A DNA stretch of 64,000 bases. Origin: Planctomycetota bacterium. GTDB lineage: Bacteria > Planctomycetota > SZUA-567 > H5-PLA8. The position numbers were made by a program, and so were the translations under genes. The stretch is taken from NCBI GenBank assembly GCA_038227875.1, contig JBBRPR010000005.1, forward strand, positions 171,247 to 235,246, in the 5' to 3' direction. Below the pieces are notes generated by a model. It did no database searches, was not told the origin of the DNA, and saw only the letters and a program-made list of their open reading frames with translations. Below, in pieces: positions 10,700 through 63,347 of this stretch (the stretch's first letter is position 1; each line of letters opens with the position of its first letter).

Positions 10700-13006
10700 C
10701 TAGTCCCACCACAAATACAGCGAGTGGCTCTTCTTCAATTCATCGGCCAGCGCCTTCACGTCGCCGCAGCCCTGGTCCACCACGTCCGGGCAGAATTCAT
10801 AGAGTTTCTTCGCTAGTGCAGCGGGTTTCTTGAGTGCTGTCAGAAATCGCCCGGTGATGAAATCGTTACCCGCACCCAGGAGGATAAATGGCTGTTCGGT
10901 TTCGAGTTCCTTCAGGAATTCAATGATGCCTCCGGGGCCCACGTCGTAATTCTGTCCGTTGGTCTGCAGCGCGGCGATCACGGCGTAGCGATCGGCGGTT
11001 GGCGCCAGCATCAGCGCTGTGGCGTCAGTGGCATCGCGCTGAAAGAGATAACAGCCGTCGCCGATGAATTCGCGGTGAAGCTTTTCCAGTTCGACGGTGC
11101 GTGTTGAGCGCACATCGCATCGATAAAGTCCGGGCGCCGCTGCAACTGGGACGCAAGGATTCCCGCATCGTTCCGCCAGTTTCGCGACGGCCGCGTGAAA
11201 TTTTGCAGAGCTGCCAGCAGCGGAAAAATCAAGCTTCGGAGTTTCCGGCCCCCACTTCTTGTCGTTCTTTGCCAACCGTTTCGCGCGCTCCTCCCCCTCT
11301 TTCCGGCGGGCCACCGCCAGACGCGGCGTCTCCTTCACCTCAAGCTTTGCCCCATACTTGATCAATATCTCGCGAGCCTGTTTCCATTTCTCTGCTTTCA
11401 GCAATGGAGTTTCACCACTGTCATTCGGAATGTTTGGGTCTGCTTTGTGTTGCAACAGGAACTCCAGCACGGGAAGTCTCGGTGTTCTTATGGCGGTAAA
11501 GAGCGCCGTCTCTCCTGATTTTGCGTGCTGCGCGTTGATGTCAGCCCCATACCGCAATAACAACTCGGCCAGCGCGATATGTCCTTCTCCTGCACAAATC
11601 ATCAGCGGAGTACCATCGCGCGGATCCTGCGCGTTGATTTCGGCGCCCGCGTCGATCAGCAATTGAGCAAGCACCTGCACTTCCGCATCCGGCAACAATC
11701 TGGATTCATGCGTCGTTCCCGTTTGGGAATAAAACGCACGGCCTTTTGCATTCGGTGCCGGTGGACTGGAGTCATCCACTTGATATTCCCGGGTCGCTTT
11801 CGCAACCGTAGCGATAAGCAACCCCAAGGTCTTTCGATCGGTCTTTGTCAATTTCGGGCGATCAGCCAAAAACTTCCTAAGTAGCGGATTAGTTAGCTCG
11901 GAATTTCCCGTTTTTAACGCCGCCTGAAGTGGAAATGATTTGTGCTTATTTTTAGCATCAGGCTTCGCACCCGCAGCCAACAGCATGGTTACAACTGGAA
12001 TATGAATCGCATTTGTGGCGAGCAGTAGCGCTGTCGTTCCGTCGAGATCGGATTTCTCAGTGTCCGCGTGTGCTTCCAACAAATCTTTGACACATTCAAA
12101 ATGCCCCTTGCGCGCCGCCAACATCAGCGCCGTCAATCCGAGATGATCGGCGGCGTTGACCTGAGCACCGGCGTACAGCAATAATCGCAGCGCTTCCGGT
12201 TGATTGTACTCAGCGGCATTCATCAATGCCGTGCGCGCCAGGCGACAATTGACAAACCGTTCGCCGCCCAACGAGTAGCTCGAACGGGCGCGAGCCTGAT
12301 CATTATTGGCCGGGTCCGTGGTCGCATTCACGTTTGCACCCGCGGCGACAAGCAGTTTGATTGCCTCTGCATGCCCGTGGCGCGCGGCAAACATTAGCGC
12401 GGTCATGCCGCTCGGTACGCATTCGCAGTGGTCCGGATTGGAACATTTTTCCAGCACGGATTTCAAGGCGGCACAGTCGCCGGACTTTGCGGCCGCAATC
12501 AATTGCTCTGTCGCGGAAAAGGTCGTCTCTCTTTCCGCTTCGGTCAGAAGCGCCACGGCATCCGTGTGCCCACCCTCCTGCGCCCATTCTCGCGCGGTCC
12601 GATTGCTCCCGCCGTCGCGCAGGCGGACGTCGGCCCCGGCACCCAAGAGTTCACGCACAATCTCCGTATGACCATTCTTCGCGGCTTCCATCAGCGGCGT
12701 AATCTTGCTGCGATTGTCAGTGATAAAATTGGCCGTGGCGTTCACGTTCGCGCCCGCGGCAAGCAGCGCATTCACGAGATTCAACACGCCTTTTTTGCAA
12801 CAAGCCGTGACCAGCGGGGGGAAACCGGGCGGCTTATTGACGTCAGCGCCGGCCTTGATCAACAGCAACGCAATTGCTTCATGGCCCATGCCCACGGCGG
12901 TATTCAGCGGCAACAGAGGTGAATTGGGATTGACGTCTTCGCCTGCTTCAAGCGCACGCTTAACCGCGTCCACATCGCCGGCGTATTCCGCACCCGATAA
13001 ATTCAT
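10700..13006 (-). CDS. Ankyrin repeat protein with C-terminal DUF4253-like domain
   Basis: Many 'G.TALM.AA..GH' ankyrin repeats; C-terminal 'EFCPDVVDQG...LYLWWD'. Confidence 0.88.
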   Translation of the reverse strand: MNLSGAEYAGDVDAVKRALEAGEDVNPNSPLLPLNTAVGMGHEAIALLLIKAGADVNKPPGFPPLVTACCKKGVLNLVNALLAAGANVNATANFITDNRSKITPLMEAAKNGHTEIVRELLGAGADVRLRDGGSNRTAREWAQEGGHTDAVALLTEAERETTFSATEQLIAAAKSGDCAALKSVLEKCSNPDHCECVPSGMTALMFAARHGHAEAIKLLVAAGANVNATTDPANNDQARARSSYSLGGERFVNCRLARTALMNAAEYNQPEALRLLLYAGAQVNAADHLGLTALMLAARKGHFECVKDLLEAHADTEKSDLDGTTALLLATNAIHIPVVTMLLAAGAKPDAKNKHKSFPLQAALKTGNSELTNPLLRKFLADRPKLTKTDRKTLGLLIATVAKATREYQVDDSSPPAPNAKGRAFYSQTGTTHESRLLPDAEVQVLAQLLIDAGAEINAQDPRDGTPLMICAGEGHIALAELLLRYGADINAQHAKSGETALFTAIRTPRLPVLEFLLQHKADPNIPNDSGETPLLKAEKWKQAREILIKYGAKLEVKETPRLAVARRKEGEERAKRLAKNDKKWGPETPKLDFSAAGSSAKFHAAVAKLAERCGNPCVPVAAAPGLYRCDVRSTRTVELEKLHREFIGDGCYLFQRDATDATALMLAPTADRYAVIAALQTNGQNYDVGPGGIIEFLKELETEQPFILLGAGNDFITGRFLTALKKPAALAKKLYEFCPDVVDQGCGDVKALADELKKSHSLYLWWD

Positions 13007-13088: not shown

Positions 13089-15980
13089 TCAGTTCTTCGC
13101 GTTTCCCGACTTCCCCGTGCTCTTGTAGAGCACGTTGAACGTTGCCTGGTAGATCGCGTCGGTTGTTTCCACGGTCACCGCGACCTGCCGGGAGCCGGTG
13201 CTCGCGGGGTCGCTGGCGGGGATCGCGGGTTTGCCGGTGGCGGGGTCGGCGGGCTGGTCGAAAATCGCGGCGAGGTTCAGCTTGTTGAAGGTCAGCTGAA
13301 TCTGGCCGCGCGTAAAATTGTGCTTCACGTTCAGCGACGTGGATTTGTAGCTCGCTTTGCGGTCCAGAATGATCGCGGGCGCGGGCTGGATGTTAGGCAG
13401 GATCACGTTGTTGATCGTGATCCGGACCGTCACGCCTTCGAATTTGCCATCGCGCAGGGCTTCGCGGGATTGCTGCGGAGTCATCACCAGATTGCGCGCG
13501 GTGAGCACCACCGACATGCGATCCTTCGATGCCTGCGGAAACTTCAAGCTCGCCTGCAGTTTCGTGGCGAAGGTCGACGGGTGCGGTTTGTCGACGATGA
13601 TCGTCACCGACGCGGTCGCCTGCTTGTTGTTGGTGTCCGTAATCGTGAGCGTCGCGATGAATGTGCCGATGGTCGTGTACGTGTGGCTCAAGCTGGGCAC
13701 GTTGCTGGTGTCGGTGTTGCCGTCGCCAAAATTCCAGATGTAACTGGTGATCGCGCCCGCGCTGCCCTGCGACGTGAAGGCGACGGTCAGCGGCGCAGTG
13801 CCTTCCGTCGGCGAGGCCTGGATGAGTGCCACCAGCGGCACGGGCTGGCGCGGCACGTTGACGCAGACGGCGAAGGGCTGCGAGCCGGACGGGATGCTCG
13901 TGGCTTTGATCACCACCGTCCAGACGCCGTCCATCGGTGAGTCGATAATGGTCTGCTCGATCGGGTCGACGGTGTTGGGTCCCGTGTTGGTCGCCAGCGC
14001 CAGCGGCGCGGCGGGGTTGATTGAGTACGGAAAATGAGTAACGCCGTTGGGATCGATCAGCGTCAGGTCCAGATCGTTGACCAGCGCTTTGGAAGCGGCG
14101 GGCGTTCCGGAAACGTCCATCCAGCAGAGCGTCGCTTTCAGTTGCGGCGTGCCGGAAAGGCTGAGCGTGAAGCTGGTGCTCTGACCGTTGGTCAGCGTAC
14201 CTTCGAAGAACGGACTGTTGGCCGCCGACGTCTGCAGCGCGATGGTGTTCACCGCGGCTTTGGCGTTGACGATGCCGAAGCCGTACATCACATCCGGGCC
14301 TTTGTTGCCCAGATCGGTGGCGGAATTGCAGAGCAGCGCTTTCATCAATGCGCCGCTGGGTTCGGAGCCGACGACGGCCTTGTAGGCCTGATCGACGAGC
14401 GCCGCGACACCGGTGACGACCGGCGTGGAGAACGACGTGCCGCTGGCAACTTGTGTGCTGTTGGTGCCGCTGTCGAGCGTCACGAATTCACCGAAGGCGA
14501 CGAGGTCGGGTTTGATGCGGCCGTCTTTCATCGGACCGAACTGGCTGAAGCCGGTGATGCCGTCGGACTGGGCGATCGGCGGGTTGTCGTCGCCGGCGCG
14601 CGCGCTGGAGCTGGTGGCGCCGACGCAGATCGTGTTCTTCGCGCCGACAAAAAAGTCGATGTGAGTGGTCGTCTGGCCGGGTTCTTCGTTGCCGGCAAAC
14701 ATACCCAGCAGGTTGCTGGACCGGATCGCGTTGTCCCAATCGGCGGAAATGGTCTGGTAGTCGCCGAACGTCGAAAGTCCGGTCGGCCCGTACGAATGGT
14801 TGGAGATGCGCGCGCCCTTCGAGCCGGCATCGACCACGTCGGCGCTGGAGAATGTCGCCGTGCCGGACGTAGGCACCGCGTACCCGAGCATCGTGACCGC
14901 GGGCGCAACGCCCTTGGCCGAGGGCTGCGTACTGCCGCTCGAACCAATCTGACCGGTGACGGCGGTGGCATGACTGACGTCTGCCGCCACCGATGAACCG
15001 GCGGTGATAAACGAAAGGCGGGAAATGAAGTCGAGATGCGAGGTCTGCTGCCCCAGTTCGCGAATCGCCACGCTGACGCCCGAACCGTTGAGACTGGGCG
15101 GCTTGTCGCGCACGTCGCTGATGTCCGATTCCAGATCCGTCGTCGCATCGCGCGAAGCGACCGGCGGCGGCGCGAATTCCACGAACGCGACGGCATCGAG
15201 CGCCGCAATGTCCATGGCCGCGTTGCGCGTCGCCACGATTTCAAAGCGCGGCCCAAGCACACTCGACGTCCACGCGTGAATCTGCGCGTCGGCCAGAGCA
15301 GGCGCCTGGCTGGCGGCCTGCTGGAGCGCATCGAGCGTCACGCTGCGATGTGTCAGCACCATGAAGCGCGTCTGCGTGCCATTCGGTTCTTGGGCGTACG
15401 CGGGCGTGTGGCCGGCGTAGATCTCCGGCTGCAGTTTGTCGCGCGGATCGATGCGGGCGACGGCGCGGACGAAGTCAAAATCCAGCGCGGCCTGGAAATC
15501 CGCCGGCGTCCCCCGCGCGTCCCACGCGTAACCGGCGACGTACGACAGCACTTCGATGCCGTGCGCGCGGAGTGTTTCGCGTTGCTGGGGAGTCGGGTGT
15601 TCGTAGAACTGGAGATACGCGGCTCTTGGCTCCTGGCTCTTGGCTTTTGGGAGCTCCGAGAACACTTGGCTGATCGCGGATCGGTCCGGGAGGAATGCGC
15701 GGGAGTTCAGTTCGACGACGTATTTGGAATCCACCTTCTTAATGGAGCTGACAAAGTCGCGGCGGGAGGCGTCGGAAAAGAATTCCCCATTTTCGCGCAC
15801 GGAATTCAGCGCGCCGCCCCAAAGCATCGGTTGAGGTGTGATATCTGTCGTTGCGGAAGTGTTATGCGGCGGGTTGGACGCGACGGTATTCTGGCCTGCA
15901 GGGTGTTGCCAAACCCAGAAACCAACAGCGATTAGAAGCAGGACGCCGAGGGAGATTCCCGCTTTGACGGTACGCGACAT
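13089..15980 (-). CDS. S8 (subtilisin-like) serine peptidase with PKD domain and uncharacterised C-terminal domain
   Basis: SHATAVTG, SNHSYG, AGNE, GRIKPDLVA, SGTSFSTP, NDLDL; PKD 'YIWNFGDG...HTY'; N-terminal hydrophobic anchor. Confidence 0.92.
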   Translation of the reverse strand: MSRTVKAGISLGVLLLIAVGFWVWQHPAGQNTVASNPPHNTSATTDITPQPMLWGGALNSVRENGEFFSDASRRDFVSSIKKVDSKYVVELNSRAFLPDRSAISQVFSELPKAKSQEPRAAYLQFYEHPTPQQRETLRAHGIEVLSYVAGYAWDARGTPADFQAALDFDFVRAVARIDPRDKLQPEIYAGHTPAYAQEPNGTQTRFMVLTHRSVTLDALQQAASQAPALADAQIHAWTSSVLGPRFEIVATRNAAMDIAALDAVAFVEFAPPPVASRDATTDLESDISDVRDKPPSLNGSGVSVAIRELGQQTSHLDFISRLSFITAGSSVAADVSHATAVTGQIGSSGSTQPSAKGVAPAVTMLGYAVPTSGTATFSSADVVDAGSKGARISNHSYGPTGLSTFGDYQTISADWDNAIRSSNLLGMFAGNEEPGQTTTHIDFFVGAKNTICVGATSSSARAGDDNPPIAQSDGITGFSQFGPMKDGRIKPDLVAFGEFVTLDSGTNSTQVASGTSFSTPVVTGVAALVDQAYKAVVGSEPSGALMKALLCNSATDLGNKGPDVMYGFGIVNAKAAVNTIALQTSAANSPFFEGTLTNGQSTSFTLSLSGTPQLKATLCWMDVSGTPAASKALVNDLDLTLIDPNGVTHFPYSINPAAPLALATNTGPNTVDPIEQTIIDSPMDGVWTVVIKATSIPSGSQPFAVCVNVPRQPVPLVALIQASPTEGTAPLTVAFTSQGSAGAITSYIWNFGDGNTDTSNVPSLSHTYTTIGTFIATLTITDTNNKQATASVTIIVDKPHPSTFATKLQASLKFPQASKDRMSVVLTARNLVMTPQQSREALRDGKFEGVTVRITINNVILPNIQPAPAIILDRKASYKSTSLNVKHNFTRGQIQLTFNKLNLAAIFDQPADPATGKPAIPASDPASTGSRQVAVTVETTDAIYQATFNVLYKSTGKSGNAKN

Positions 15981-57979: not shown

Positions 57980-58933
57980 GTGCCTACCGCGTCTCCGAAA
58001 TCACCCATCGCCCCGCCCACCGATCTCGACACGCTGTTGAGCGAAGCGTCCTTCGCCTGCGCGCACGCGGTTCGAACTCGCGTGGCCGGTCCGTGGGTTC
58101 CGACTGCGCACCGGACGCACTGCGACAAAATTTATATCATCCTGGAAGGCCAGGGCATCGCGCGGCTCAATGAGTTCGACTACCACATCGTTCCCGGAGA
58201 CGTCTTCCTGATTCCCGCCGGCACCATCCAGCAGGGCGATAGCGACCGCGACAATCCCCTTATTAAAGACTGGGTCCATTTCCACGCGTCGACCACGCAG
58301 ACGCTGCAGTTGATGAGCCTGTTTCCGCCGCCGTTGTGTCTGAAGGGCAAAAGTGCGGCCACCATCGGCGCGCTGATCCGCGAGCTGATCGTGGAATGGC
58401 AGGGCCACGCGCCGGCGCGTCAACTTGCGATCAAAAGTCTGCTGATGCGCGCGCTGCTGACGGCTTACCGCGCGCCGCAATCCGACTGGCGCAAACCCGA
58501 CGCGGTTCGTGCCGCGCCGCTCACACCGGTCGTGGAAGAGGGCGCGACGCACCGCCTTCCGGTCGACCGCATCCGCATGGTGCTGGCGCTGATGAACCGT
58601 TCGTACAGCGAGCCGCTGAGCCTGACGGAGCTGGCCAAGTGCGCGTGCCTGCACCCGACGTACTTCAACCAGGTCTTCAAACGCGTGGTCGGGATGCCAC
58701 CGATGAAGTTTCTCGAGCAGCAGCGGTTGCGCCGCGCGCAGGAACTGCTGGCCCAGAGCGCGCTGACCGTGGCGGAAATCGCGGAGCAGGTGGGTTATCA
58801 GGACCCCTATTATTTCAGCCGCGCGTTCAGCAAGCGTACGGGGCAGGCGCCCAGCGCCTATCGCGATGAAATCCAGAAAATCGTCAGTTCGCCGGGCGAA
58901 TCCCCTCGTAAAACTAAGAAAGTCCATCCCTAA
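57980..58933 (+). CDS. AraC family transcriptional regulator
   Basis: Cupin N-terminus; 'VAEIAEQVGYQDPYYFSRAFSKRTGQAPSAYR'. Confidence 0.92.
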   Translation: MPTASPKSPIAPPTDLDTLLSEASFACAHAVRTRVAGPWVPTAHRTHCDKIYIILEGQGIARLNEFDYHIVPGDVFLIPAGTIQQGDSDRDNPLIKDWVHFHASTTQTLQLMSLFPPPLCLKGKSAATIGALIRELIVEWQGHAPARQLAIKSLLMRALLTAYRAPQSDWRKPDAVRAAPLTPVVEEGATHRLPVDRIRMVLALMNRSYSEPLSLTELAKCACLHPTYFNQVFKRVVGMPPMKFLEQQRLRRAQELLAQSALTVAEIAEQVGYQDPYYFSRAFSKRTGQAPSAYRDEIQKIVSSPGESPRKTKKVHP

Positions 58934-59033
58934 ACATATACGGGTCCATGGCTACTTCAGGACTTACAGGCTATTTTATCACCATGAATTCCATGCGGGC
59001 GGATGCTCGCGCGACAAACCCGAGAGGAACATC

Positions 59034-60524
59034 ATGGCTGCGCGTAAATTGCTGAACGATGAACAGATGCGGTCCTTCCTGACCCACGGCTTCCTGGTGA
59101 TGAAGTCCGATCTGCCGCGCGAATTCCATCTTGAACTGCGCAAGCAGTGCGACACGGCTGTGGAGAAAGACCACGGCAATCCCGGCAACAATATTCTGCC
59201 GTATGTTCCCGACATCCAGAAAGTCTTCGATTGCCCGACCGTCAGCGGCGCGCTCACCAGCGTGCTGGGCGAGCGGTACTTCATGCACCCCCACCGCCAC
59301 ATGCACGCCAATACGCATTCCAAGGGCGGCGACTGGCACAAGGACAGTTACTGGGGCTACACCAACAAGACGCGCAACCACCGTCCGTGGTGGGTAATGA
59401 TCATGTACTACCCGCAGGACGTGCAGATCGAGAACGGCCCGACGGGCGTGCTGGCCGGCCGCCAGAATCACCAGGACCGCGTCGAACCGGTGGACGACGG
59501 CACGACGGCGGTGACTGGCGAAGCGGGCACGTGCTTCATGATCCAGTACGACATCTGGCACCGCGCCACGCCCAACACGTCGGGCATCAACCGCCAGATG
59601 CTGAAATTCGAATTCATGCGCCTGGAAGCGCCGGAAGCTCCCGCGTGGGATTGCCGCGAGACCGAGTGGCGTCCGTCGCTGGCGCTGCCGCCGTTCCGGC
59701 ACAACGGCATGTGGCGTCAGACCTGGAATTTCCTGAGCGGCAAGAAACGCCCGGCGGATCACACGTCCAAACTTCCCGCGCTCGATGGCAGTGCGGTCAT
59801 GCAGCTGATTGGCGGCGATGGTCCGGCGCGCGCGCAGGCTGCCGACACCTTGGAAGCCTGCGGCCCTGCCGCGGCGGACGCCGTGCGGCCGCTGACGCAG
59901 ATGCTCGGCGATCCGTACGAACCGGCCGCGATTAACGCCGCGTACGCGCTGGCGGCGATCGGCGCGCCCGCGATTCCGGCTCTGCGCGAGGCGATCCGCA
60001 CCGGTTCGCCGAATGCGGTGCGCAATGCCGGCTATGCCTTCGCGGCGATGGGCGGGGAAGCGATTCCCGCGCTGCTGGAACTGGTCAACGATGCATCCGT
60101 ACCTATCCGCTGCGCTGCGACGTTTGGCTTGAGCGAAATTCGCGAATGCGACGGCGACGTGATCGGTGCGCTGGCGCGCTTGACCAAGGACAGTGAAGCG
60201 CGCGTGCGGCTGCATGCCGTCGAAGCGCTGGGCATGAAATCCGGACAGGCGAAGAACGCGCTTCCCGCGCTGATCGACGCGCTGCGCGATGCGGACACCG
60301 ACACACGCTTCAACGCGGCTCTGGCCATGGCGCGCCTGGGACCCGCGGCGAGCGAAGCGGTGCCGGCGCTGGTCGCCGCGCTGGAAGATTCCGACCGCTA
60401 CGTGCGCGGCTACAGCGTCGAAGCGCTGCACCAGATCGGCACGCCGGAAGCTCTGCATGCCGCGATCCGCTTCCTGAAGACGGCGCGGTGGTGTACGTCG
60501 ACGGGGCCGAAGAGCGCGTTCTAG
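59034..60524 (+). CDS. PhyH-family dioxygenase fused to HEAT repeats
   Basis: WHKD, YYPQD, IWHRA; C-terminal 'A.PAL..AL.D....VR..A..AL' repeats. Confidence 0.87.
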   Translation: MAARKLLNDEQMRSFLTHGFLVMKSDLPREFHLELRKQCDTAVEKDHGNPGNNILPYVPDIQKVFDCPTVSGALTSVLGERYFMHPHRHMHANTHSKGGDWHKDSYWGYTNKTRNHRPWWVMIMYYPQDVQIENGPTGVLAGRQNHQDRVEPVDDGTTAVTGEAGTCFMIQYDIWHRATPNTSGINRQMLKFEFMRLEAPEAPAWDCRETEWRPSLALPPFRHNGMWRQTWNFLSGKKRPADHTSKLPALDGSAVMQLIGGDGPARAQAADTLEACGPAAADAVRPLTQMLGDPYEPAAINAAYALAAIGAPAIPALREAIRTGSPNAVRNAGYAFAAMGGEAIPALLELVNDASVPIRCAATFGLSEIRECDGDVIGALARLTKDSEARVRLHAVEALGMKSGQAKNALPALIDALRDADTDTRFNAALAMARLGPAASEAVPALVAALEDSDRYVRGYSVEALHQIGTPEALHAAIRFLKTARWCTSTGPKSAF

Positions 60525-60590: not shown

Positions 60591-63182
60591 TTACTTCTTG
60601 AACTTTCCCGACGTCCCGGCTTTGCCGGAATAGGTGGCGGCGACGATGGCCTGGTAGGTCACGCCGCTGAGTTGGATCGTGGCGGTCAGGGTCATGGGGA
60701 GCGCGGTGATCGTGGTTTGAGGGTTGATGCCCCAGGTGCTGGCCCAGGAGCCTTTCAGGAGTTTGGCGGTGAAGGGCACGTTGCCGCTGGCGAAGGACTT
60801 CGATTTGCCTTTGCCGGTCAGCTTGATTTTCAGCGCGACTGAGCCGTTGGCGGACTTGCCTTGACCGCGGGCGTTGAGCGTGAAGGACTGCGTCGCGCCG
60901 CCGACGTTCAGGAGCAAGGTCTGTCCGTTGGGATTGAAGCCGGCTTGAACGGCGGGAAGAATTCCAGTCAGCGCGACGGCGTCGTGGTTCGACGTCTTGA
61001 AGTTGGTGCTGCCTTGCAGTTTGGAGACCGTCATCGTCACAGTCGTTCCACCGGTGCCACCGCCTCCGGTGCCTGTGCCTGTGCCCGTGCCTGTACTGGT
61101 TGACGTGCCCGTTCCTGTCCCGGTACCAGTTCCCGTACCCGTTCCTGTGCCGGTCCCGGTTCCTGTTCCTGTCCCAGTACCGGTTCCTGTGCCTGTTCCT
61201 GTGCCTGTTCCCGTTCCAGTTCCAGTTCCAGTTCCGGTCCCTGTCCCCGTTCCAGTGCCGGTTCCGGTTCCGGTGCCTGTGCTGACGGGGTTGACCTGGA
61301 CACTCACGGTGCCGGTGGCGGTCAAGTTGCCGGGGTCGGAGACGGTGACTTTGGCGGAGAAGGTTCCGGTGCCGGCGTACGCGTGCGTCGGTGTTGCGCC
61401 GGTGCCGGTCAGCCCGTCGCCGAACGTCCAGGCGTAGGTCAGCGTGTCGCCATTCGGATCGGTCGCGGCGGCGATGAAATTCACGGTCTGCCCGACCTGC
61501 GCGGGATTGGGCGTGGCGACGGGCGCGGAGGTCAGGTTCGGCGCCTGATTGCCGGCGGCGGGCGGAATCACGAACAGCGTGATGCTCTGCCCGGGAAGAT
61601 TGCTCGTCGTGGTCAGAGCGCTGGCCGTCACGGTAAACGCGGAGAACGTGCCGATGGCGCTGGCGCCCGCGCTGGAGATCTGCCACGCCGAGGCGGTGCC
61701 TTTGGTGGTGAAGTTCGCGAGGTTCAGCGTCAAGCTCGCCGCGGCGGTCTGCTTGTTGATCACCATCACCGTCAGCGCGCCATCCGAGGAACGGATCGCG
61801 GCGAACGTGGAGAGATTGTCGGGATTGGTGACCGTCGCCTTGCAGCTCGTGTCTCCGAACGTGGACTTCGCGCCGTCGTAGTTGCGGTAGAGCTTCATCG
61901 CGTTGTAGCAGGGCGAGCCGGCCGCCGGCGTCGTCCAGCGCGTCGCCATGTCCAGACCTTCGCGGCCGAAGATGCCGAAAATATCGGCCTGCGCGGTCGC
62001 GCCGTTGATGTGGCCCTCGGCGCCCCAGTTGTATTCGGTGATGGCCGTCTGCGTGCCGGGGTAGTATGTGGCGACCCAGTTTTTCATGCGCGGAATCAAC
62101 ATCACCTTATCGTTGATCCACGACTGGTCGACGTAGGTCGGATCCCAGAGCTGCCGCGTCGACTTGTTGCGCAGCGTCTGCATCGCGGCGCTGGTGTCGT
62201 TGCTGAATTCGCCGCCTTGCGGGTAGCAGTGCAGGCTGAAAATGTCGAGCAACCGCTTACCGGTCGAAACGTTATTGGCGCTCATCTGCTGCAGCAGCCA
62301 GGGCATGTAATCCATGTTGCCGTGCGCGGCGCGATCGGGGAACGAGCTCCAGCCGTTGGCCGCACCGGAGACCTGATCGGCGCCGCTATAAAGGTAGCCG
62401 GTCCAGCCGTACTCTTCGGGTCCGACGCAGAGCGCATTGGCGTCGACGGATTTGATCATCGTGGCGTAGTCGATCATCTTGGTCTTAATTTCATCCATCG
62501 TCGGCCCAGCCGGGTGGACATCGACATGGGTGCTCTGCCAGATGCTGTGTTCGTTGTCGAGAATGTAATAGCGCACGCCGCCGGCCGTGGACGCGCCCCA
62601 CTTGCCGACGAGATGTTGCACGAAGCCTTTCTGAAACGTGGAATCGGCCGCGACGTTGGCGTCCAAAGGATTGTTGCCGGTGATCTGCTTTCCGGTGCTC
62701 TGCGAAATGCCGTTGCCGGCGTCGGGATACCAGGCCGAATCGTTGCCGGTCTGCGCTCCATATTTGGCGATGGAGAAGCTGGCGAGCTTGCTGCGTCCGG
62801 CCCCGAGTTTGGCGACGTAGCCGAGCATCGGCACCGTGATCATCGAATCGGCGCTCGCGCCTTTGCCGATCTGCACAAAGCTGTCGGCGGACGCGCCCGC
62901 CGTGGCGCTGCCTTCGTCGAGACTTTCGTAGTACCAATCCTGCGCGTGGTTGGCGGCGTTCTGCTGCCAGTTGTAGGTGGAGGTGGTGTTGCCGCCGTGG
63001 CGATGGACGGGGCAGTTTAAGTCGGTGAGCGTCGGGCTGTCCGGTGCGAAGGCGGTGCCGTAGATGCGCGGGTCGATGGGATGGCGGTTGGCGTTGGCGT
63101 CGATGGCGACGGTTTCGGCGCGCGCGGTGACTGCGCAGGCCAACGTGATGAGCGCAACCCACAGACGGATGAACTGCTTCAT
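60591..63182 (-). CDS. Secreted GH44 endoglucanase/xyloglucanase with PKD domain, (GT)n linker and uncharacterised C-terminal domain
   Basis: Signal peptide; R.GGN...[36 protein letters not shown] 'WTFGDG'. Confidence 0.92.
61065..61280 (-). repeat. Coding hexamer repeat encoding a (Gly-Thr)n linker
   Basis: GGNACN repeated with third-position variation. Confidence 0.95.
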
Positions 63183-63347
63183 CGCGCGCCCCCCTTCCTT
63201 TGCGTGCCCGATTTTGCAATGCGGATGCGATGTCCCGTTAGCGAGACATCTCATTAGTGGAACTTACCACCGATTGGGTTTGCGGGAAGGTGGGAAAAAA
63301 CTTCTTAAAGTGCACGAGGGCATGGGGGACGGCGGCTCTTGGCTCTT

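Follow-up and report, generated by a model that had tools for sequence, protein, structure and literature searches.

The T9SS (type IX secretion system) was recognised largely through a C-terminal domain common to many unrelated proteins. This domain is a compact, seven-stranded immunoglobulin (Ig)-like sandwich of about 70–100 residues, often preceded by PKD or Ig domains, and two parts of the machine, PorU and PorZ, carry C-terminal domains themselves; PorU cleaves the domain, and the cargo becomes attached to anionic lipopolysaccharide. GW, SLH and CWB2 modules are positively charged, sometimes tandem, non-covalent anchors on an anionic envelope polymer, and PPC (PF04151), the pre-peptidase C-terminal domain of bacteria, is a beta-sandwich that closes secreted peptidases, those of the S8 family among them. 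Lastly, Fibrobacter succinogenes possesses a lineage-specific basic terminal domain (BTD, or FPm-1) with an isoelectric point (pI) above 9, borne by dozens of hydrolases (PMC3079729). The BTD has long been discussed as a surface anchor whose mechanism is unknown; it was then proposed as a T9SS signal because of an overlap with TIGR04183 in at least two proteins and because of peptides missing from the mature proteins (PMC6851124). Here, we analysed a stretch of 64,000 nucleotides (the window) from a Planctomycetota bacterium (GenBank assembly GCA_038227875.1, contig JBBRPR010000005.1, positions 171,247 to 235,246), where an S8 family peptidase and a GH44 glycoside hydrolase end in a basic domain, hereafter the tail, that bears the hallmarks of a tag for sorting or anchoring.

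A previous reading of the window, made from the sequence only, had paired the two tails by eye at three places and proposed that they are related. Compared directly by BLASTP, the two share 25% identity over 159 columns with a non-significant E of 0.28, so that the similarity seen by eye alone would not exceed chance. A search of the genome with the S8 tail as sole query recovers nothing but this tail (next best E 0.035), and the GH44 tail finds 82 places at E ≤ 10. The genome (9.34 Mb in 176 contigs, 59.6% G+C, 88% complete) was translated in six frames into 53,153 stop-to-stop open reading frames (ORFs) of at least 80 amino acids. A phmmer/hmmsearch iteration seeded with the GH44 tail gathered 39, 94, 104 and 107 of them and was then stable at 107; in the iterated profile, the GH44 tail has the best score (E 5.5e-46). 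The profile of the second round, whose 94 paralogous tails did not include that of the S8 protein, matches the S8 tail with a domain E of 3e-5 (profile positions 5–146, Z = 53,153). Moreover, the S8-tail subfamily, aligned as 10 sequences (the S8 tail and nine relatives from seven related genomes), was compared by hhalign with the 100 other tails of the genome, yielding a probability of 98.4% and an E of 5.5e-15 over 133 columns; the same three stretches are paired in this alignment. The two independent comparisons, i.e., the match of a profile lacking the S8 tail and the significant profile–profile alignment, thus confirm that the tails belong to one domain family, the S8 tail representing a divergent subfamily. 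The genes, their strand and the order of their domains had also been read correctly; Pfam places Peptidase_S8 and PKD in the first protein and Glyco_hydro_44 and PKD in the second, the tail being last in both, and the limits previously assigned to the two tails agree with those of the profile (Table 1).

The tail consists of about 145 residues folded as an all-beta sandwich. The AlphaFold2 model of the GH44 tail, based on an alignment of 101 tails, reaches a predicted local distance difference test (pLDDT) of 97.1 and a predicted template modelling score (pTM) of 0.89, with 10–11 strands, several of which span 10–14 residues. The model of the S8 tail, based only on its own 10-sequence alignment (pLDDT 87.8, pTM 0.81), has the strand order of the GH44 tail plus one helix, an insertion that sets its subfamily apart (TPQQSREALRDG). 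As already noticed from the sequence, both tails are basic and beta-rich (pI 10.16 for the S8 tail; pI 10.63 and net charge +14 for the GH44 tail), and no transmembrane helix is present, the domain being globular, all-beta and devoid of hydrophobic helices. The analysis of the alignment columns revealed that, along each strand, hydrophobic residues of the core take turns with Lys, Ser or Thr at the exposed positions. There are hardly any acidic residues, the only well-conserved ones being D22 (96%) and D58 (64%, in the motif F-T-L-D-x-K-G); together with these, the well-conserved positions are Gly and core hydrophobics, with no conserved aromatic platform or pocket and no conserved stretch of 7–10 columns across the 101 tails. 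The last strand is rich in Lys, with the consensus ...Y-S/T-A-K-x-G-K-S-G-x-A-K followed by the stop.

The absence of a Pfam or NCBIfam counterpart, predicted by the sequence-only reading, was observed. The last 150–170 residues of the S8 and GH44 proteins do not match any model of the two databases at E ≤ 1. Among the 101 tails, the most frequent Pfam match was Big_1 (3 of 101, best E 0.0016), every other model matching one tail each (lowest E 0.00055, T2SSN); no carbohydrate-binding module (CBM) family was matched, and nothing in NCBIfam recurred beyond 2 of 101. None of these matches is credible, and no convincing match to a known CBM or Ig family was obtained. The tail profile searched against the sequences of the PDB gave a best E of 0.76, and none of the PDB structures searched with Foldseek matched at E ≤ 0.001 (template modelling score up to 0.38). 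An exhaustive VIA fold search retrieved generic sandwiches (archaellum FlaF/FlaG, the Sap S-layer domain and PmoB) with a best Z of 6.6, within the background range of the tool; structures of T9SS C-terminal domains are not among the 50 listed VIA matches or the Foldseek matches, although the tail may be related to them. A search of a protein atlas returned unnamed clusters only (score up to 0.91), and a word-indexed protein search returned one relative; three matches of 13–37 residues, obtained with the GH44 tail in unrelated named genomes, were attributed to chance and not used. No description of the domain was found in full-text searches of the literature, in Pfam (2025 copy) or in NCBIfam 20.0. 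On the whole, the tail is a real and strongly supported new domain family.

The 107 ORFs carrying the tail together account for 3.5% of the genome, and in 100 of them the tail lies at most 14 residues from the stop codon, its last residue being K or R in 67 of these 100. The other seven harbor a further beta-rich, basic domain of 169–201 residues after the tail; compared with the tail profile, it gives an hhalign probability of 15% and an E of 0.0017, and it may be a very divergent second tail copy. A signal-like N-terminus was recognised in 95 of the 107 ORFs by a crude heuristic (start codon plus hydrophobic segment), several of the others being contig-end fragments. Pfam scans covering all the carriers (45 + 49 + 13) revealed a very diverse domain content: hydrolases (two GH44, GH113, trypsin and peptidases of the S8, C1 and C10 families), other enzymes (a glucose/sorbosone dehydrogenase and a chlorophyllase-like esterase), binding modules (CBM6/35, LamG and CAP), propellers and helices (NHL, Kelch and right-handed beta-helices) and repeat arrays (PATR, cadherin, He_PIG, Big and DUF11). 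PKD occurs in 83 carriers (39 + 39 + 5), typically directly upstream of the tail and usually joined to it through a flexible linker.

Outside this genome, a profile search of 1.84 billion cluster representatives retrieved 3057 proteins at E ≤ 0.001, 477 of which at E ≤ 1e-30; the counts given here for public representatives rest on the best 150 of the 3057 matches. In 148 of these 150 the last tail copy lies at most 15 residues from the C-terminus, in 123 the final residue is K or R, nine possess two tandem tails, and only five have a near-identical counterpart in this genome. Of the 41 related genomes, the tail is present in 14 of 16 from the same family, in both of those from a second family of the order and in none of the 23 others, with a copy number ranging from 1 to at least 95; two relatives, G006 and G014, assembled in 8 and 6 contigs, have 18 and 13 copies, respectively. 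An even sample of 301 genomes across the phylum includes 29 with the tail, 22 of which fall outside the home family, in seven other families; these 22 mostly harbor 1–10 copies (at most 13 candidates were scored per genome). At 20 loci from such distant genomes, the tail stands at the very end of 20 out of 21 carrier ORFs. Regarding the lineage, FtsZ (TIGR00065) was not found in 39 of the 41 genomes of the class (G000–G040), including five assembled as single contigs; of the two matches obtained, the one above the cut-off is a contig-end fragment in a genome 74% complete and 5% contaminated. This lack of FtsZ, like the taxa of the atlas clusters, points to Planctomycetota. DUF1559 gave only three partial matches; therefore, the organism is not a typical member of the Planctomycetia. 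The tail is thus patchily distributed within one FtsZ-less phylum, with an expansion of its copy number.

The charge of the tail differs from that of the proteins bearing it. In this genome, tails have a median pI of 10.16 (101 of 107 above 9) and a median net charge of +10, and the rest of the carrier proteins has a median pI of 5.02 (6 of 104 above 8). The same holds for the public representatives, with 141 of 150 tails above pI 9 and none of 120 bodies above pI 8; this asymmetry is sharply conserved. According to these data, the pattern expected from the sequence-only reading was recovered as regards the many copies (107 ORFs and 3057 public representatives), the export signals, within the limits of the heuristic, and the varied catalytic domains, and homologues located internally or on cytoplasmic proteins did not emerge. 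Its expectation that the tail would always be C-terminal is almost correct, the departure being the seven ORFs with a domain after the tail.

The same reading had assigned the tail to the recognition or attachment step of an undescribed secretion or display system; the tail pattern speaks in favor of this idea, but no conserved neighbor or co-occurring machine turned up, either in gene neighborhoods or through the one candidate suggested by phyletic profiles. Concerning known machinery, SprA/Sov, GldL/PorL, GldM/PorM and PorV (TIGR04189, TIGR03513, TIGR03517 and NF033710, respectively) gave no match at E ≤ 0.001 in this 88%-complete genome, the control genomes being silent for three of the four models. 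The T9SS C-terminal domain type A (TIGR04183/PF18962, Por_Secre_tail) does not match any of the 101 tails at E ≤ 0.1. Genome-wide, the model of this domain produced one marginal internal match (25.9 bits, E 8e-5, G000:C31:64867-65019, G000 being this genome), which probably reflects a generic Ig-like resemblance; it sits inside a protein of 2259 amino acids that also ends in a basic tail. PEP-CTERM (TIGR02595) was not found in the genome at E ≤ 0.01, with silent controls, and the tail does not fit a PEP-CTERM/exosortase signal, being an all-beta globular domain instead of a PEP motif followed by a transmembrane helix and a basic stub.

The 3317 ORFs located within 6 kb of the tail genes did not include any strongly enriched family or dedicated partner. 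Family names were assigned by eye to the clusters of neighbors, and the genome-wide numbers of the AraC-type and dioxygenase-like families come from profiles built in this analysis: 33 of the 145 ECF (extracytoplasmic function) sigma factors of the genome lie near tail genes (about 21 expected), as do 27 of 136 AraC-type regulators (about 20 expected), 22 of 203 histidine kinases and 17 of 98 dioxygenase-like proteins. No common neighbor was shared by the 20 loci from distant genomes.

The phyletic-profile candidate, referred to as the L087 type, is a conserved protein of about 1100 amino acids present in 1–3 copies per genome. It is composed of a signal anchor, a region of about 690 residues, PKD, a tail variant that is not basic (pI 4.3–9.5) and an extra basic end domain of about 170 amino acids finishing in ...W-K-L-R. 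Atlas leads for the 690-residue region point to a beta-propeller and not to an enzyme, and the protein had no match among PDB sequences. Its N-terminal 680 residues follow the presence and absence of the tail in 40 of the 41 related genomes, the exception having a single tail; orthologues (49–55% identity) occur in every related genome with at least 11 tails and were not found in G002, G007 and G010. Across the phylum, only weak partial matches were obtained, namely in 5 of the 22 distant genomes that possess the tail and, similarly, in 31 that lack it, so that the phyletic link fails at this scale and the protein was rejected as a general partner, remaining a lead for the expanded family only.

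Given a folded, polycationic module that ends about 100 exported acidic proteins, the tail is most simply, and probably, a surface tag. As for the way in which it might work, we tentatively favor, at somewhat less than an even chance, a direct electrostatic retention of the carriers on the anionic outer surface of the cell. The carriers, with an acidic passenger and a polycationic tail, would leave by Sec export, and the tail would then hold the passenger on the outer surface of its own cell, on lipopolysaccharide or acidic exopolysaccharide, through multivalent, electrostatic and non-covalent binding, that is, as a surface-display anchor that would need no dedicated linked gene. This mechanism is preferred because it accounts for the asymmetry of charge, for tails in tandem and for the absence of a linked gene; the lack of a partner among the neighboring ORFs and at the distant loci fits a self-sufficient binder. 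Tandem copies are common in binding modules that act by avidity and uncommon in export signals, and the strong positive charge, together with the occasional tandem tails, is no less compatible with direct binding to an anionic surface than with a machine that recognises the tail. Some observations weigh against retention by simple binding: a binding module needs no strict C-terminal placement, the conserved last residue (K/R in 123 of 150 and in 67 of 100) could be a feature recognised by a machine, and the signal-peptide count (95 of 107) depends on a crude heuristic. Furthermore, the same features fit a rival by analogy with the Fibrobacter basic tail, later proposed as a T9SS export and attachment signal and not a simple anchor (PMC6851124).

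This rival, which we regard as rather doubtful, depicts the tail as an export and attachment signal of the T9SS kind, which a hypothetical, dedicated translocon or attachment complex of the outer membrane would read in the periplasm and which would then be removed or retained, in a lineage without a recognisable T9SS. The logic of the cargo would be the same, with a Sec signal, diverse passengers, a PKD or Ig domain and a basic beta-sandwich at the C-terminus; the dispersal of the genes without a linked partner, as for T9SS cargo, the wide range of copy number among related genomes, the conservation of the terminal motif and last residue, the reinterpretation of the Fibrobacter domain (PMC6851124) and the L087-type protein, which tracks the tail in 40 of the 41 related genomes and recalls PorU and PorZ, all point in this direction. 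On the other hand, no candidate machine was identified, the searches for SprA, GldM, GldL and PorV being negative within the limits of completeness and controls given above; beyond the family and the order, the L087 type no longer tracks the tail, tandem copies, present in 9 of 150, are uncommon in signals, and about 145 residues exceed the typical T9SS C-terminal domain. A bolder version, which appears unlikely, would make the tail the cargo tag of an independently evolved outer-membrane secretion and attachment system, analogous to the T9SS and serving about 100 large folded proteins per cell in FtsZ-less bacteria, probably Planctomycetota, with the L087-type protein as a surface component where the cargo has expanded. 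The two remaining explanations are less likely than both the anchor and the T9SS-like signal. That the tail is a CBM-like module for environmental anionic polymers or surfaces (pectin, sulfated or uronic polysaccharides, humics, clay or DNA), which would direct enzymes toward a substrate and not toward the cell, seems improbable to us: it is polycationic, adopts a beta-sandwich fold as many CBMs do, may be in tandem and is found on GH44, GH113, CBM6-bearing, protease and beta-helix proteins, but it is almost never internal or N-terminal, although CBMs take varied positions in proteins, it lacks a conserved aromatic platform or pocket and a CBM match in Pfam, and in many carriers arrays of Ig, He_PIG, cadherin, NHL, Kelch or PATR are recognised, and no enzyme domain. 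Passengers of such diversity make a substrate-specific module unlikely. A very unlikely reading is that of a structural Ig-like end-cap with no sorting or anchoring role, whose position would be accidental, due to domain shuffling that moved a PKD-plus-tail cassette around within a growing family of paralogues. The frequency of PKD just upstream of the tail (83 of 107 carriers) does suggest that the two spread jointly as a cassette, and the structural matches are generic sandwiches only (Z up to 6.6); nevertheless, the charge asymmetry is kept in 141 of 150 public representatives, only five of which are near-identical to those of this genome, the terminal motif shows conservation, carriers from distant families likewise have the tail at the C-terminus (20 of 21) and the carriers occupy 3.5% of the genome.

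Table 1. Features of the two tail-bearing genes of the window and genes of the L087 type elsewhere in the genome (G000). Positions refer to the window unless a contig is given.
Feature	Position	Strand	Basis or remarks
S8 family peptidase gene	13089..15980	-	963 aa; ORF list; Peptidase_S8 E 4.2e-34
S8 protein, N-terminal hydrophobic export signal or signal anchor, residues 1-27	15900..15980	-	sequence reading and crude heuristic
S8 protein, Peptidase_S8 catalytic domain, residues 299-569	14274..15086	-	Pfam PF00082, profile positions 1-288 of 288
S8 protein, PKD domain, residues 720-795	13596..13823	-	PF18911 E 9.2e-15; PF00801 E 8.2e-12
S8 protein, basic C-terminal beta-sandwich tail, residues 803-963	13092..13574	-	profile match, hhalign, AlphaFold, pI 10.16
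GH44 glycoside hydrolase gene	60591..63254	-	887 aa as listed; probable start M25 at 63182
GH44 protein, probable Sec signal peptide, residues 25-46	63117..63182	-	ARA before ETV; sequence reading
GH44 protein, catalytic region, residues 43-561	61572..63128	-	NF041873 43-561; PF12891 101-346
GH44 protein, PKD domain, residues 577-654	61293..61526	-	PF18911 E 6.5e-16
GH44 protein, Thr-Gly repeat linker, residues 658-737	61044..61283	-	80 residues, almost pure; translation; between PKD and tail
GH44 protein, basic C-terminal beta-sandwich tail, residues 738-887	60594..61043	-	typical family member
L087-type gene (L087)	C51:7485-10841		
L087-type gene (L088)	C124:5940-9245		
L087-type gene (L086)	C20:110099-113404		
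L087-type gene (L101)	C28:41170-43755		

The GH44 protein matches Glyco_hydro_44 (PF12891) with E 8.7e-70 in the Pfam scan and the NCBIfam EpsB-type GH44 model (NF041873) with E 2.2e-101, yet below the cut-off of the latter. In other members of the tail family, bacterial TSP3 (Asp-rich) repeats fill the place of its Thr-Gly linker. In the S8 peptidase, the site of the catalytic Asp motif (usually D-S/T-G) reads V-A-I-R-E-L-G, where a Glu (E308, window positions 15057-15059) seems to replace the Asp; in a motif search, the sole basis of these assignments, the motifs around H337 (His), N394 (oxyanion Asn) and S516 (Ser, GTSFSTP) are canonical. As for the neighboring genes, identified by eye, an ankyrin-repeat protein of 768 amino acids is encoded downstream of the S8 gene (window positions 10700-13006, minus strand), and beside the GH44 gene (57980-60524, plus strand) lie genes for a regulator of the AraC type and for a dioxygenase-like protein that has HEAT-like repeats. 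Elsewhere in the genome, three tail genes lie head to tail on one strand (G000:C90:2973-11661; 590, 984 and 1243 amino acids), and further pairs are found on C51 (33067-38986, convergent) and C15 (51990-61111).

In bacteria of the Planctomycetes-Verrucomicrobia-Chlamydiae type with large secretomes, the passage across the outer membrane and the display of big folded enzymes and adhesins are poorly understood. A signature comparable to the one that revealed the T9SS is present here in about 100 genes, in a lineage where no T9SS genes were found. The hidden Markov model (HMM) of the tail offers a ready means to define the probable surface proteome of uncultured soil and sediment bacteria; moreover, the tail is a compact and confidently folded target for binding and structural work, and a possible display tag for the carrier organisms.

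Compared with described systems, GW, SLH and CWB2 modules have other folds and sequences, belong to monoderm or S-layer-bearing bacteria and are not limited to the last residues of the protein, and none of them was matched by the tail in Pfam. PPC did not match any of the 101 tails either, and it is not known to occur in some 100 copies on non-peptidase proteins. The Fibrobacter BTD resembles the tail, both being basic, paralogous C-terminal modules on many secreted enzymes (101 of 107 tails exceed pI 9); unlike the BTD, the tails have no TIGR04183 match and no T9SS genes were found with them. This precedent cuts both ways, toward an anchor or toward a T9SS signal. The tail differs from the T9SS C-terminal domain in its length (about 145 residues), its 10–11 strands and the absence of an HMM match in 101 tails, as well as in its host, an FtsZ-less lineage, probably Planctomycetota and not the Fibrobacteres-Chlorobi-Bacteroidetes (FCB) group, and SprA, GldL, GldM and PorV were not found in the genome. 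Nevertheless, like the T9SS C-terminal domain of Bacteroidota and Fibrobacterota, which is likewise basic (PMC6851124), it is a C-terminal beta-sandwich shared by many unrelated Sec-exported proteins, with dispersed genes and variable cargo numbers, and its extreme C-terminal position on diverse exported proteins (100 of 107; 148 of 150) is that of T9SS cargo.

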